A stretch of DNA of 39,604 nt, taken from positions 1-39,604 of the forward strand of contig CAZRCE010000001.1 in assembly GCA_964598465.1 (NCBI GenBank), written 5' to 3'. How positions within the stretch are numbered: the first letter of the stretch is position 1; every line of letters begins with the position of its first letter. Source of the stretch: an uncultured Clostridia bacterium. GTDB taxonomy: Bacteria; Bacillota; Clostridia; Christensenellales; Borkfalkiaceae. This document shows, in pieces, positions 658 through 5,301 of this stretch. The position numbers and the translations under genes were made by a program. The notes under the pieces are model-generated. The model searched no databases. It was given only the letters and a program-made list of their open reading frames with translations, and was not told the origin of the DNA.

Positions 658-691
658 ATTTATTCGTAAAAGCTGTGTTTTACGAATAAAT
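658..691. repeat. perfect 14-6-14 palindrome, candidate tyrosine-recombinase core (dif/att-like) site, copy 1
   Basis: ATTTATTCGTAAAA-GCTGTG-TTTTACGAATAAAT. The arms are exact reverse complements. Copies recur at 4608-4639 and 5290-5301. Confidence 0.6.
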
Positions 692-753
692 TAACCTTCT
701 CTAAGATACTACCACTCATTAAGAGAAAAGTCAAGAGTTTTAACAAAAAAAGT

Positions 754-781
754 TTGAAATTTTTCTAAACTATGCTAAAAT
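754..781 (+). promoter_or_regulatory. sigma-A-type promoter placed for a leaderless DUF2726 transcript
   Basis: TTGAAA(754-759)-16 nt-TAAAAT(776-781), then 6 nt to the ATG at 788. No Shine-Dalgarno is visible. Confidence 0.5.
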
Positions 782-787
782 AAAACT

Positions 788-1342
788 ATGGAACTATTTT
801 TTATTATATCTATATGCCTAATAGTAGTTATCGTAATTGCAATCTTTATTATTAATTTGATTTATAAAAATAAGCAAAACCAATCCCACCAAGATTTTGA
901 ATATATTCCGAATAACAATGAAATACAAAGTCAGAATATTGAAAACGAAACTACTGCTATTAAATACGAAATTAAATCAAAATATTTATCTTACTATGAA
1001 CTAAAATATTATGAAGCAATTCAAAATATTTTAGAAGGTAAATACATATTATTTCCGCAAGTACCACTATCTCAAATTATTGTTGTCAAGAATAAAAAGT
1101 CTAAATATCAAAGTGAGCTTTATAGAGTTATTGATTTTTGTATATTTGATAAAGACTATACCCCCCTACTCTGTATCGAAATTAACGACGAAACGCATCA
1201 CCAAAGAAATAGATATATCAGAGATAAAAAAGTTCAAAATATTTTAAACAATGCGGGGCTACCTCTTATTACTTTATGGACTAATTTCGAATTAAACATA
1301 AATTATATAGAAAATAGAATAAAACAGCACATAGAAATATAA
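788..1342 (+). CDS. membrane-anchored DUF2726-family (PD-(D/E)xK / Vsr-like nuclease fold) protein, AT-rich copy
   Basis: N-terminal TM helix (LFFIISICLIVVIVIAIFIINLIY), then FPQVPLSQI..RVIDFCIFD..LLCIEINDETHH..LPLITLW, the DUF2726 pattern. Paralog of 4744-5283. Confidence 0.8.
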   Translation: MELFFIISICLIVVIVIAIFIINLIYKNKQNQSHQDFEYIPNNNEIQSQNIENETTAIKYEIKSKYLSYYELKYYEAIQNILEGKYILFPQVPLSQIIVVKNKKSKYQSELYRVIDFCIFDKDYTPLLCIEINDETHHQRNRYIRDKKVQNILNNAGLPLITLWTNFELNINYIENRIKQHIEI

Positions 1343-1344
1343 AC

Positions 1345-1372
1345 AAATCCCTCGGAGTAATCCGGGGGATTT
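1345..1372 (+). terminator. weak terminator-like hairpin after DUF2726 copy 1
   Basis: AAATCCC..GGGATTT stem directly after the stop. No clear T tract. Confidence 0.3.
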
Positions 1373-1450
1373 CAATGTTAAAATTATCGAAGCAGTTTAC
1401 TGTACCCATTCCTTTATCTTCCGTTTATCCCAGTATAACATTTTTATTGC

Positions 1451-1486
1451 CTACGGCTTTGATAGTCAAACCGTAGCATTTTTTTT
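1451..1486 (+). terminator. hairpin plus T8 tract in a non-coding stretch
   Basis: CTACGG(c)TTTG-atagt-CAAACCGTAG followed by CATTTTTTTT. No ORF precedes it between 1343 and 1450. Confidence 0.45.
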
Positions 1487-1503
1487 GATAATGAAATGGC
1501 AGT

Positions 1504-1713
1504 TTGAAACAAAAAAAATCTCCACGAGAATTGTTTGACAATCAAACCATAAAAATGTTGCAGCCTACCCGCCGAAAGGCAAATAAAAATAAGGTAGGTA
1601 AAAAGGAAATGGCAGTGAAAAGCAACGAGTTAGTTCGACTTATCCAGAGTTTACGCTCTGTCGGTTGGACAGATACAGAAATTGTTGACTTGCTACTTAG
1701 TATAAGTACATAG
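1504..1713 (+). CDS. small hypothetical protein; start uncertain (TTG at 1504 or ATG at 1609, the latter giving 34 aa)
   Basis: ORF track. The C-terminal part (LVRLIQSLRSVGWTDTEIVDLLL) looks like a short helix-turn-helix-like segment. AAGGTAGG lies 10 nt upstream of the 1609 ATG. Confidence 0.3.
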   Translation: MKQKKSPRELFDNQTIKMLQPTRRKANKNKVGKKEMAVKSNELVRLIQSLRSVGWTDTEIVDLLLSIST

Positions 1714-1738
1714 TTAACATAAGCTTCTAAAAAAGACA

Positions 1739-1826
1739 AAAGCCGTTCCCCAACCAAGGCTAAACGGCTTTACATAAGTTGGAGGTTGCACCGGAGTAAA
1801 CCTACCTGCTCCACTTCCTCCAACTT
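1739..1826 (+). other. two consecutive strong hairpins (1739-1771 and 1776-1826)
   Basis: AAAGCCGTT..AACGGCTTT is a 9-bp stem. AAGTTGGAGG..CCTCCAACTT is a 10-bp perfect stem around a 31-nt loop with an inner GGAG/CTCC pairing. Confidence 0.5.
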
Positions 1827-1874
1827 GAATTTATTTTAAACTATTTAATTCAATTTGTCAAGGAGTAAAAAAAT

Positions 1875-2072
1875 ATGTTAAAAGCATACGACGAAATAAC
1901 AGGAAAAGAAATTAAAAAAGGTGATATAATAACAGATTTTCGAGGTGATAAAGACACTTTTGAAATGCCTTCGAGAGCGCGAACAGAATACAGAAGTGGA
2001 AAAGTTTGTACCAAAGAAGGTCGAGAGTATTACGACAGAGTTTTTAATATTATCGTAAAAGACGAAGAATAA
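1875..2072 (+). CDS. hypothetical 65-aa protein
   Basis: AAGGAG RBS 8 nt upstream of the ATG. Charged soluble protein with no recognisable motif. Confidence 0.5.
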   Translation: MLKAYDEITGKEIKKGDIITDFRGDKDTFEMPSRARTEYRSGKVCTKEGREYYDRVFNIIVKDEE

Positions 2073-3751: not shown

Positions 3752-3761
3752 GATTTGTTGG

Positions 3762-3965
3762 TTAACCGCGGAGGTGCAGGAAATTCTGTATTAATCCCAT
3801 AAGCAAGAAGAATATAGAAATTCCGAGACCGACGACGGCGAGCGTACCGAGGAAAGTTAAACCCGTTTCGGCATCGTAAAATACTTTTACGATAGACGGA
3901 AGGGTTTCGGCAATCCAGGTAGCTATACTCGTAAATACACCGGTAATCTGGGAAACAACGGACAC
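3762..3965 (-). CDS. 67-aa hydrophobic protein, candidate major coat protein
   Basis: GTG start with an AAGGGGGTG RBS embedded in the upstream gene end. TM segment LTFLGTLAVVGLGISIFFLLMGLI, basic tail HLRG. Confidence 0.55.
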   Translation of the reverse strand: MSVVSQITGVFTSIATWIAETLPSIVKVFYDAETGLTFLGTLAVVGLGISIFFLLMGLIQNFLHLRG

Positions 3966-3967
3966 GC

Positions 3968-4234
3968 TTATTCACCCCCTTTTGATTTATTATTTTCGAC
4001 CGACTGCGCATATTCGGTTAAAACCGTTTGAAGTTCGTTGAAATGGACAAGTAAAAGCTTCGGGTGTTTAAGAAGAAAACACTTCAAATCGTTAAATCTT
4101 CCTTCGTCGATAAACTTTTTACTTTTTTCCATAAGTTTGTCGTAAGTCATATTTTTGACCCCCCTTCGCTGAATGAAATAATAAGCTGTAAGTATAACTG
4201 CTATCACCGCAAACAGAATTACATATACAATCAT
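3968..4234 (-). CDS. 88-aa N-terminally anchored protein; start taken at the internal ATG
   Basis: The ATG at 4234 overlaps the upstream stop (TAATG). Reads MIVYVILFAVIAVILTAYYFIQRRG, then a helical soluble part. Confidence 0.5.
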   Translation of the reverse strand: MIVYVILFAVIAVILTAYYFIQRRGVKNMTYDKLMEKSKKFIDEGRFNDLKCFLLKHPKLLLVHFNELQTVLTEYAQSVENNKSKGGE

Positions 4235-4449
4235 TATTTCGCCTCGAACAAAGAGCCGTCGATTTCGCCGAGGCAAACCTTATAATCAGGTTCTACCGCG
4301 TAAAGGTCAGCAACCGAACGACCGAGTAATTCAGCAATAACCGAACGGTCGAAGCAAAGGAAAACAAGACGATAACCCAAATCGACATAAATGACGTCGA
4401 AATAATTACCCGCCTTAGCTTTGCGCTTCTCGTAAAAAATTTTGAACAT
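4234..4449 (-). CDS. 71-aa protein with weak motif resemblance to the inovirus gene V ssDNA-binding protein
   Basis: GGAGG RBS. YVDLG..LYAV..YKV..GSL occur in the same order and with similar spacing as YVDLG..LYTV..FKV..GSL of Ff gVp, recalled from memory. Confidence 0.45.
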   Translation of the reverse strand: MFKIFYEKRKAKAGNYFDVIYVDLGYRLVFLCFDRSVIAELLGRSVADLYAVEPDYKVCLGEIDGSLFEAK

Positions 4450-4541
4450 AAAAAAACCTCCGAAAAAAAATTTCCGAAGGCTAATTTATTGTAGGTACAT
4501 TCACCTGCCATAATGCAAAGATTATGCCAATTGAAGTATCC

Positions 4542-4560
4542 CGTAAAACATACTTTTTAC
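4542..4560. repeat. degenerate site copy with a 6-bp spacer (CGTAAAA-catact-TTTTAC)
   Basis: Inner arms are identical to the 658-691 site (CGTAAAA / TTTTAC). The spacer differs. Confidence 0.35.
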
Positions 4561-4607
4561 AAACAATTAAATGTTTGCGGTGATATGTAATTATATAAAT
4601 TTAATTG

Positions 4608-4639
4608 TTCGTAAAAGTCACTGTGTTTTACGAATAAAT
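4608..4639. repeat. palindromic site copy 2, hybrid form with a 9-bp spacer
   Basis: TTCGTAAAAG + TCA + CTGTGTTTTACGAATAAAT. The 10-bp and 19-bp blocks match copy 1 exactly, with 3 extra bp in the spacer. The outer left arm is diverged. Confidence 0.6.
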
Positions 4640-4708
4640 AGACTTACTCTCCAAACGGGTCGAAAAAGCGTGGAAGATTAGTCCACCATTGAAAAAACGA
4701 ATATTTGT

Positions 4709-4737
4709 TTGACTTTTTCCTCGTATTTTTATATAAT
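4709..4737 (+). promoter_or_regulatory. near-consensus sigma-A promoter placed for a leaderless DUF2726 transcript
   Basis: TTGACT-17 nt-TATAAT, then 6 nt to the ATG at 4744. No Shine-Dalgarno. Confidence 0.65.
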
Positions 4738-4743
4738 TGATTT

Positions 4744-5283
4744 ATGGAAACGTTTCTTCTTATCGTCGGCGGGGTCGCTTCTGCCGTACTGTTGTTTGTA
4801 GTTTTTCTGGTTTTTCTTCAATCTTACAAGGGACACAACCGCTTTCTTCTGTTTTTGCGTTACAAATTTTTCAAAAATAAGAAACAACGCAAAAAGTACG
4901 ACGCCTACTATTCCGTCAAACCGAGATACATTTCACCCTGCGAGGAAGAATATTTCGAAAAAATCAAGTCGTTAATCAGCGATAATTTCATTATTTTTCC
5001 GCAAATCCCCCTCTCTCAGATTGTCGAGAAGCATTCTCAATCTAATTATAAGACGGAGCTTTTCAGAGTAATCGATTTCTGCATATTCGACGAAAATTAT
5101 TATCCCGTTCTCTGCATCGAAATTAACGACGCAACTCACGTCGGAAAAAACAGAGCAAAGCGCGATTCCAAGGTCGCGGAAATTCTTAAATCAGCAAAAA
5201 TCCCCCTCCTCGTCCTCTGGACTTACGAGGATGCGGATTTGGGTTTCATAAAAAAATCGCTTAAACCATACGGCGTCGTATAA
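4744..5283 (+). CDS. membrane-anchored DUF2726-family nuclease-fold protein, second paralog
   Basis: TM helix FLLIVGGVASAVLLFVVFLVFL, a basic linker, then FPQIPLSQI..RVIDFCIFD..VLCIEINDATH..IPLLVLW. Confidence 0.8.
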   Translation: METFLLIVGGVASAVLLFVVFLVFLQSYKGHNRFLLFLRYKFFKNKKQRKKYDAYYSVKPRYISPCEEEYFEKIKSLISDNFIIFPQIPLSQIVEKHSQSNYKTELFRVIDFCIFDENYYPVLCIEINDATHVGKNRAKRDSKVAEILKSAKIPLLVLWTYEDADLGFIKKSLKPYGVV

Positions 5284-5289
5284 ATATAA

Positions 5290-5301
5290 TTATTCGTAAA
5301 A
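5290..5301. repeat. half-site (left arm only) of the palindromic site
   Basis: TTATTCGTAAAA matches 660-671 at 12/12. No right arm follows. It ends 7 bp upstream of the recombinase -35. Confidence 0.45.

Follow-up and report, generated by a model that had tools for sequence, protein, structure and literature searches.

We analysed positions 1 to 39,604 of contig CAZRCE010000001.1 from an uncultured Clostridia bacterium of the Borkfalkiaceae, a stretch called the window below, in which copies of one palindrome lie between glgP and xer, a gene for a tyrosine recombinase. The first copy (site 1, 658-691, no strand) reads ATTTATTCGTAAAA GCTGTG TTTTACGAATAAAT and is a perfect 14-6-14 inverted repeat with arms of 14 nt. 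The second (site 2, 4608-4639, no strand) reads TTCGTAAAA GTCACTGTG TTTTACGAATAAAT; its inner arms and its right arm are the same as in site 1, but the outer left arm is TTAATTG as against ATTTAT in site 1 and the spacer has 9 nt as against 6. The third is a half-site (5290-5301), a lone left arm TTATTCGTAAAA that ends 7 nt ahead of the -35 element of xer. These coordinates and sequences had been reported in an initial annotation of the same DNA, and on direct check all of them are correct. The window contains two occurrences of the pattern TTCGTAAAA-N5-10-TTTTACGAA, for which 100 shuffles give an expectation of 0.00, and a perfect inverted repeat with arms of at least 14 nt was obtained in 0 of 100 block shuffles. 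The 12-mer arm alone is weaker evidence, with 5 matches against 1.5 expected and 2 of 100 shuffles reaching 5. The other perfect palindromes of the window are mostly short-looped stems that contain G+C and carry A/T runs on their flanks, and we read them as terminator-like, only two of them being in the region given the terminator scan. The palindrome at 658-691 has an A+T-rich stem without a T tail and is the only palindrome of the window that recurs. It was not called by the terminator scan and has no match in Rfam, for which reason we rejected a terminator or a known RNA at this position. Also, each full copy is followed, after about 100 nt, by a DUF2726 gene (788-1342 and 4744-5283), and the two genes are paralogues.

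The xer gene (5344-6405, + strand) encodes a protein of 353 aa with the Pfam integrase catalytic domain (PF00589) and SAM-like N-terminal domain (PF02899). Catalytic residues had been visible in its translation from the outset, and the set R200, K224, H295, R298, H321 and Y331 is indeed invariant or nearly so in an alignment of 89 family representatives. Of the NCBIfam models, XerS (NF003462) scores best with 196.4 bits over model positions 9-356 of 360, and XerA, XerC and XerD lie at 148-161 bits. XerS is likewise the best model for 89 of the 89 nearest 50%-cluster representatives, all of which remain below the equivalog cut-off of that model. It may be noted that the initial annotation had put the protein in the size class of the single-recombinase XerS/XerH enzymes; the length agrees with this and the best model is XerS, but membership of the XerS equivalog does not hold, as the score is below 267 bits. 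We therefore speak of a XerS-like family that appears distinct from streptococcal XerS, a placement made by the hidden Markov model (HMM) scores of the window protein and the 89 representatives. An exhaustive search returned 733 clusters (50% identity) of this family at E < 1e-30, mostly of 340-360 aa. In the PDB, XerD and XerA are nearest (XerD at E 1e-19) and XerH is distant (5jjv, E 3e-7). PHROG integrase families match the protein as well.

For comparison we used 80 species-representative genomes of uncultured Clostridia labelled Christensenella, Borkfalkiaceae or Candidatus Coproplasma, and the loci and contigs of relatives are given here by L-numbers (L006, L081, L152 and so on). Orthologues of xer have 71-80% identity in the 80 representatives and 94% in L152, with conserved synteny. 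Of the 80 representatives, 72 have a single TTCGTAAAA-N6-TTTTACGAA site ahead of the xer orthologue, at a distance of 24-1034 nt. Six loci have no match of this kind; in three of these the contig ends within 70 nt of the gene, and the other three (L008, L010 and L062) have half-sites only. The inner 9 bp of each arm are invariant across the sites, the spacer is GCTGTG in 54 of 73 sites, and the dyad symmetry reaches position 14-15 and then ends. The layout is thus of the dif type, two arms of 14-15 bp around a conserved 6-bp spacer. Counted over the loci and the window, copies with the 6-bp spacer number one per 17-kb locus and one in the window. The gene order glgP-site-xer-(hflX)-lexA is kept and is followed by rluB on the opposite strand, and the linkage of site and gene persists, with variant sites, where the Xer identity falls to 64% (L085) and 49% (L105). 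The initial annotation had looked to orthologous glgP...xer loci for a lone palindrome beside xer, which is what these 72 loci have, and an exact empty allele was found in L152 (see below). Also, it had taken xer for a core gene and not cargo; this is borne out by the same synteny in about 80 species, by the position of the gene outside the inserted block and by its stop codon (6405), 3 nt from the ATG of hflX (6409).

The position of the site relative to the replication terminus was examined in 46 loci that extend over 16 kb or more. Ahead of the site the GC skew is positive (mean +0.072) and past it negative (mean -0.077), the upstream value being greater than the downstream value in 46 of 46 loci, and on pooling in 500-nt bins the change of sign falls in the bin that holds the site. 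A change from positive to negative skew along the strand as read is a terminus-type switch where the leading strand is G-rich. The long open reading frames (ORFs) follow the same division, with 82% on the + strand upstream of the site and 35% downstream. In the window the skew stays negative for 31 kb past the site. Its plus strand carries glgP through lexA and its minus strand all the large ORFs that follow from 8559 onward, with convergence of the two groups at 8522/8559. The suggestion in the initial annotation that the palindrome might sit at a skew extremum is therefore supported in the relatives, with a + to - switch at the site in all 46 loci and the pooled sign change at the site itself.

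The sequence between sites 1 and 2 proved to be an insertion. L152, the closest relative available, has one site with a 6-bp spacer; to the left of this site its sequence aligns with window 480-657, and to the right with window 4640-5343, which takes in the DUF2726 gene, the arm, the promoter and xer. Since the flanks of L152 match the outer flanks of sites 1 and 2, the block 692-4607 (- strand, about 3.9 kb, copy-to-copy spacing 3948 bp) is an insertion exactly at the palindrome, and L152 represents the empty allele. The insert is low in G+C (24-43% as against 43-52% in the flanking core genes) and is absent from L152 and most relatives. No recombinase gene was found in 692-4607 by tblastn with xer, and none appears in the Pfam listings of the genes of the complete prophage L155 or of the circular relatives L145 and L146. 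Over 2720-4634 the insert is about 72% identical to L081 and L082. In L155 a complete prophage lies between xer and glgP, with genes, in this order, for coat-like proteins, an ATPase, a 372-aa glycine-zipper protein, a 222-aa protein and Rep_1, and partial or cut copies of the element are present in L084, L148 and L151, also between xer and glgP. Copies occur beside the more distant xer orthologues of L085 and L105 too. Relatives of the element were further found as circular contigs of 4.1-6.2 kb (L092, L096, L100, L104, L113, L118, L128, L145 and L146). An unrelated element of 7.7 kb occupies the same site in L038 (L038:260-7930); it has a Rep_OBD rolling-circle initiator and a repressor with helix-turn-helix and S24 domains, no Zot-like ATPase and no integrase, and its junction reads [non-arm]-GCTGTG-TTTTACGAA. 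As the element family with the Zot-like ATPase and the unrelated L038 element use the same point, the site is an integration hotspot for integrase-less elements. We classify the insert, from its gene content and position, as an integrative mobile element exploiting Xer (IMEX) with no integrase of its own. The initial proposal that mobile DNA has used a dimer-resolution site for integration is in line with this, the insert being without an integrase and its relatives being found both free as circles and integrated at the same site. In L154 the usual junctions (L154:6380-6560 and 12106-12129) and an L155-like gene order were seen, and no xer or glgP was found in this 13-kb slice with the window proteins; the reason is either a rearrangement of the locus in that genome or the presence of further elements in tandem. 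In L148 a gene of the PAPS-reductase family (L148:5035-6231) was noticed as extra cargo next to the intact site of the integrated phage relative.

The composition of the junctions shows how the two sites of the window came to differ. L082, likely a free form of the element, has one site, in which two arms enclose the 9-nt spacer GTTTATGTG and which has element DNA to its left and right; this spacer can therefore be assigned to the attachment site of the element (attP). The same 9-nt-spacer junction is present beside xer in L081 and L006. Site 2 was earlier seen as a hybrid attachment junction, and it does join an element left arm to the host right arm, but the extra TCA, which had been counted among the signs of a hybrid, is not junction damage and is the element's own spacer as in L082. 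In its full extent (4599-4639) it would be the right junction, attR, made of the element left arm ATTTAATTG-TTCGTAAAA, the element 9-nt spacer GTCACTGTG and the host right arm, and site 1, with host left arm, host 6-bp spacer GCTGTG and right arm, would be the left junction, attL, and the proposed working dif. The attP spacer GTNNNTGTG has its last 4-5 nt in common with the host spacer (TGTG in 4 of 4 copies, CTGTG in the window and L081). With the host 6-bp spacer in attL and the element 9-nt spacer in attR, the crossover must have been on the right-arm side. A second attP design lacks the left arm: it is seen as half an attP in the L145 circle and, in L084, L151, L154 and L155, as junctions of the form [non-arm]-host spacer-TTTTACGAA. 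Where both junctions could be read there is one crippled and one intact site, in the window through the 9-nt spacer and in L084, L154, L155 and L038 through the missing left arm; in L081 and L151 only the crippled junction was seen.

Among the genes of the element the marker of the family is an ATPase (2731-3513, - strand) of 260 aa, a membrane-anchored P-loop protein with a Zot/pI-like fold. Its AlphaFold2 model (pLDDT 81) has the Zot N-terminal domain 2r2a as best PDB match (E 3e-6, TM 0.40/0.53), and the best viral fold matches are those of Acholeplasma phage MV-L51, a 4.5-kb plectrovirus, and of Inoviridae Zot (E about 1e-7). At the level of sequence it has no match in Pfam, PHROG or NCBIfam, none to Zot PF05707 included, and peptide-pattern scans of IMG/VR, made from the single ATPase protein and from the alignment, gave no relative. 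The family has 743 members, many of them on contigs of 3.6-5.7 kb, and appears to be missed by current virus-detection pipelines. Beside the ATPase, in all relatives, are two small hydrophobic coat-like proteins (3521-3965, - strand, 59 and 67 aa), and two further small ORFs by the attachment region (3968-4449, - strand, about 88-102 aa and 71 aa) are kept in L006, L081 and L082. A palindrome at 3873-3893 (ATCGTAAAA-TAC-TTTTACGAT) resembles the arms but was set aside as an extra site, being inside a coat-like gene, where it probably reflects the conserved peptide KVFYD in that frame. Rep_1 (PF01446) is present in L154 and L155, and the window copy is without Rep. For the putative Rep proteins of 205-244 aa in L082, L145, L146 and L148 Pfam gave no identification, the best hit being a weak Y1_Tnp (E 0.03). 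A 126-aa ORF (2358-2738, - strand) is a candidate deletion fusion: by tblastn the C-termini of the 205-aa protein of L082 and the 216-aa protein of L145 match window 2330-2404, and the ORF is likely the scar of an internal deletion that removed a glycine-zipper protein of 360-380 aa, a protein of about 200 aa and Rep, the intact gene order being seen in L155, L154 and L145. Judged by its genes the window prophage is a defective one, having lost its replication gene and a putative adsorption gene. The left half of the insert (692-2357) consists of a second DUF2726 gene (788-1342, + strand), whose product has a membrane anchor and a nuclease-like domain (PF10881 at E 5e-15, phrog_14167), and an accessory module of three small ORFs (1504-2222, + strand) of 69, 65 and about 49 aa. 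At the nucleotide level nothing in L081 or L082 matches this half; the 65-aa product corresponds to phrog_35924 and the 69-aa ORF has protein matches of 46-48% in L032 and L154. PADLOC reported no defence match for the DUF2726 proteins and nothing for the marker ATPase.

Taking the locus as a whole, we consider it very probable that the palindrome is the chromosome dimer-resolution (dif) site at the terminus, that a XerS-like enzyme is encoded beside it and that the site in this genome is occupied by an integrase-less, filamentous-phage-like IMEX. In such a system two recombinase monomers would bind the identical arms and exchange strands at the edges of the spacer GCTGTG. The element, lacking an integrase, would bring a dif mimic in the form of its attP and would be integrated by the XerS-like enzyme of the host. 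The spacers being unequal, only one strand pair would be exchanged, presumably the bottom strands and by the monomer on the right arm, and replication or a host resolvase would then resolve the junction. XerS in vitro prefers bottom-strand exchange via the monomer on the right arm (PMC2965235). After integration attL (658-691) would keep the host 6-bp spacer and remain a working dif, and attR (4599-4639) would take the 9-nt spacer and presumably be inert through its spacer length, which would lock the prophage in while dimer resolution is kept.

Several points weigh against this interpretation. The analysis is wholly in silico and all the genomes compared are metagenome-assembled genomes (MAGs) or metagenome contigs. 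The window itself has 657 nt upstream of the site, and the skew switch rests on the relatives. As said above, the window protein at 196.4 bits does not reach the XerS equivalog cut-off of 267 bits. The absence of a second tyrosine recombinase applies to the 39.6-kb window and the 17-kb loci, these being the extent searched. Recent mobility of the window copy is unlikely since it lacks Rep. Although 7-mers and 8-mers strongly skewed toward the site exist (GAAGAAG, for example, at 199:40), as polar motifs that might orient FtsK they are uninformative, because the loci share orthologous genes and a strand bias. Also, the perfect symmetry of the arms is unusual for dif sites. In 47 of 72 sites the outer arms are symmetrical at positions 10-14, and these positions covary, but co-evolution of the outer arms with the recombinase was rejected as the reason, since Xer proteins of 97-99% identity go with different outer arms, often with the change in only one arm (L045/L057, L019/L033, L046/L074 and L027/L030, with the site about 50-90 nt upstream of xer). 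In L057 the 6-bp spacer is inverted (CACAGC). The covariation fits a DNA-level process or a hairpin better than it fits recognition by a protein; candidate processes could be the exchange of one arm whenever an attL takes over as resident dif, of which the window is a case, or correction of a near-palindrome by template switching.

Of the alternatives, the one that survives best, though we still hold it unlikely, is that the module is real but auxiliary, with XerC/XerD and a classical dif elsewhere in the genome as the main system; it might, for instance, be a second system retained because phages make use of it, as is suspected for Lactobacillus helveticus, which has both. It would agree with the ancestral state inferred for Firmicutes, which is XerC/XerD (PMC8136486), and with a genome described as having XerC, XerD and XerS together (Kono et al., PMC3025954), and the recombinase searches covered the window and 17-kb slices. 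Yet in 46 of 46 genomes the module coincides with the skew switch, the position at which one expects a working dif, and its identical arms suit a homodimeric enzyme. Moreover, within the window and the 17-kb loci we saw no second recombinase, and none by scpAB: the downstream part of the window (11265-12831 and 14904-19422, both - strand) carries scpB, scpA, a D-Ala-D-Ala carboxypeptidase gene, spoIVB and recN, and no xerD is found there beside scpAB, the place which it adjoins in most Bacilli (PMC8136486).

Much less probable is that the palindrome serves only as an operator or a structural hairpin (a terminator or a REP-like repeat), with no role in recombination, and that the 3.9-kb block arrived in some other way. 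The arrangement near the promoters does give some reason to think of it: in compact loci the site reaches into the xer promoter or directly adjoins it, in about 25 species a single arm stands against the -35, and each full copy is followed by a DUF2726 gene. The outer arms moreover show hairpin-like covariation, and the site folds at -10.4 kcal/mol (z = -8). But the breakpoints of the insertion are exactly in the site, the flanks are split between the two copies, and the spacers are of host type on one side and element type on the other. The unrelated element of L038 uses the same point, and the Zot-like element has a look-alike of the site when it is free. As for a hairpin, the stem is A+T-rich with no T tail, neither a terminator call nor an Rfam match was obtained, and the spacer, which would be the loop, is conserved. 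A regulatory role of the site may nevertheless exist in addition to recombination. The least probable alternative, in which xer serves a mobile element as its integrase and the palindromes would be the attachment sites of that element and not dif, can draw on the frequent occurrence of tyrosine recombinases beside repeats in integrative elements, on the PHROG matches and on the low-GC foreign DNA next to xer, but is hardly compatible with an xer that is outside the inserted block, is 71-94% identical in the same glgP-xer-hflX/lexA context of about 80 species, most without the insert, sits at the GC-skew switch with its stop 3 nt from hflX, and is retained together with the site in the empty allele L152.

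On the reading of the palindrome as dif with a XerS-like enzyme beside it, the nearest described system is XerS/difSL of streptococci and lactococci (Le Bourgeois 2007; Nolivos 2010, PMC2965235). There too a single recombinase of about 355 aa is encoded directly downstream of its site at the terminus, and the difSL of L. lactis, ATCTTTCCGAAAA ACTGTA ATTTTCTTGACA (PMC2965235), shares with the site here TTC-NN-AAAA, the CTGT core and TTTT in the same orientation. XerS is also the best HMM, and the window junctions need the right-arm exchange, on the strand that XerS prefers. The differences are in the host, which is a Clostridia member and not of the Streptococcaceae, in the score (196 as against 267 bits) and in the arms, which are imperfect and unequal in difSL and form a perfect palindrome of 14-15 bp around the 6-bp spacer here. 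No IMEX for XerS is described in the literature searched. XerH/difH of Helicobacter and Campylobacter is similar in having a single long recombinase (about 360 aa) and a partly palindromic site near the gene, but it belongs to another phylum and its relation in sequence is much weaker (5jjv at E 3e-7 as against 1e-19 for XerD). In the XerL/dif system of Legionellales (PMC9765430), dif was likewise recognised through a mobile element integrated there, the IMEX LME-1, and the long uninterrupted inverted-repeat arms, the single recombinase and the pair of one modified and one intact flanking site are in common; however, xerL is >400 kb from dif in Legionella and adjacent here, the recombinase family is unrelated and LME-1 is much larger.

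The element in turn compares with CTXphi, VGJphi and TLCphi of Vibrio and the gonococcal genetic island (GGI) of Neisseria (PMC5357621), which also have no integrase, use the host Xer at dif and leave one site crippled. The three Vibrio elements are filamentous phages, and the present element is filamentous-phage-like. The possible design with two inverted sites that might pair resembles that of CTX and the arm-less design that of TLC and the GGI, and the combination of one crippled and one intact end recalls the GGI, TLCphi and LME-1. A XerC/XerD pair acts in the Vibrio and Neisseria cases, in contrast to the single XerS-like enzyme proposed here, and the host here is Gram-positive. As far as we found, a mismatch of 9-nt and 6-nt spacers is not among the strategies described in the literature searched. 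With Tubulavirales (MV-L51; Enterocloster inoviruses, PMC10061712) the element shares circles of 4-6 kb, the Zot/pI-like fold, the small hydrophobic coat-like proteins and, in intact relatives, a rolling-circle Rep, which the window copy does not have. It differs in that no sequence-level match to Zot (PF05707) or to PHROG was obtained and in that the membrane helix of the ATPase is N-terminal.

To our knowledge only a few single-recombinase dimer-resolution systems have been described, namely XerS, XerH, XerL and the archaeal XerA, and among Firmicutes XerS is considered specific to the Streptococcaceae. In the literature searched XerS was placed in Streptococcaceae and one Lactobacillus only, the bacterial single-recombinase systems were XerS, XerH and XerL, and no single-Xer system was described in Clostridia or Christensenellales. 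The single-Xer/dif module and its IMEX are thus of known kinds, and would be a variant, in lineage and phage family, without earlier description in that literature. If the interpretation is true, uncultured gut Clostridia have a sister XerS-like module with an unusually clean palindromic site, and a new family of filamentous-phage-like elements of 4-6 kb (743 marker proteins) uses it; these would be the first IMEXs for a single-Xer system of Firmicutes in the literature searched, with two ways to cripple one junction, a spacer-length mismatch and a missing arm. In these MAGs the site would also be of practical use for locating the terminus and the borders of prophages.

A further feature of the attachment region bears on how the element may enter. 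At 4540-4572 (no strand), 45-70 nt inside the element, is a degenerate inverted dif-like site, CCGTAAAA CATAC TTTTTACAAACAATTAAAT, which we call attP2 (attP1 being the attP described above) and which is kept in 4 of 4 sequences (window, L081, L082 and L006). Over 14-18 nt the right arm of attP2, together with the flank outside it, is complementary to the left arm of attP1 and its outer flank, with two compensatory changes, and the other two outer flanks match nothing. The attP1/attP2 pairing holds in 85% of cells as against 35-51% in slid controls, these figures coming from four sequences, one of which (L006) has a competing local self-hairpin. The DNA fold z-scores of the attP2 region are -4.1 and -4.5 on either strand. 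A DNA pattern made from attP2 had one match in IMG/VR, on a 133-kb contig with a site that differs from attP2, and this was taken as chance. In a CTXphi-like model the packaged strand would be the window minus strand, on which attP1 and the inverted attP2 would pair into a forked hairpin mimicking dif; the lone XerS-like recombinase would perform one bottom-strand exchange on this folded single-stranded DNA (ssDNA) and replication would complete the integration, which would make the element the counterpart of CTXphi in a Gram-positive host with one recombinase. We put this model forward as tentative and think it rather more apt to be wrong than right. The same reserve applies to a wider picture in which integration by folded ssDNA, a module serving as the general dimer-resolution system of unstudied gut Clostridia (733 clusters) and outer arms rewritten by uncatalogued phage traffic would all hold jointly; such a conjunction is possible, though we would not expect it.

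The proximal arm is part of a compact promoter region (5287-5337, + strand) in which the arm (5290-5301) is followed by the -35 TTGACT (5309-5314), a 17-nt gap and the -10 TAAAAT (5332-5337), the promoter ending 6 nt ahead of the xer ATG at 5344. The half-site can be read as a degenerate full site, TTATTCGTAAAA-TTAGCA-TTTGACTTA, the right arm of which is now the -35, and the arm at 5290-5301 probably began as a dif copy. The layout arm-N4-6-TTGAC(T/A)-N17-TAnAAT-N6-8-ATG recurs in about 25 species. Where the full site is >100 nt from xer, an exact left arm is present 35-51 nt before the ATG, and compact loci have, in the half-site's position by the xer promoter, the left arm of the full site. 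Such conservation of the arm at a fixed distance from a leaderless promoter suggests a function, for instance as an autoregulatory operator, and the arm may thus serve the recombinase in the control of its own gene. In the initial annotation the half-site was a decayed copy, and the intact site was held to be distal to xer with the decayed copies proximal. Its origin as a dif copy remains probable and the 6-bp copy is indeed distal and the 9-nt copy proximal; mere decay, however, does not agree with an arm and layout conserved in about 25 species. The promoters at 754-781, 4709-4737 and 5309-5337 are all strong and sigma-70-like, 6-7 nt before an ATG and without a Shine-Dalgarno sequence, and the mRNAs of both DUF2726 genes and of xer look leaderless. 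In L008 a Phd/YefM antitoxin gene (L008:457-759) is flanked by the xer promoter arm and, 2 kb upstream, by a right half-site; it may be toxin-antitoxin cargo deposited at the site.

Two other features of the region may be traces of older events. At 523-560, in the intergenic region on the glgP side and about 120 nt upstream of site 1, the sequence ACCGTAAAA TATTGTG TTTTCAGAT is a possible relic of an older dif-like copy; it was found by an approximate arm scan and by its repeat family and is partly kept in L152, which is weak evidence, and it may be the scar of an older event. The chromosomal DUF2726 gene (4744-5283, + strand, Pfam match) lies between the site and xer and has orthologues in L002, L059, L061, L081, L152 and the DUF2726-bearing L151 only; its presence in few relatives fits an earlier insertion event, and the gene is probably cargo of such an insertion. 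DUF2726 genes recur as cargo next to the site, in a number of elements and chromosomes, at 788-1342 and 4744-5283 in the window and at L151:2879-3415.

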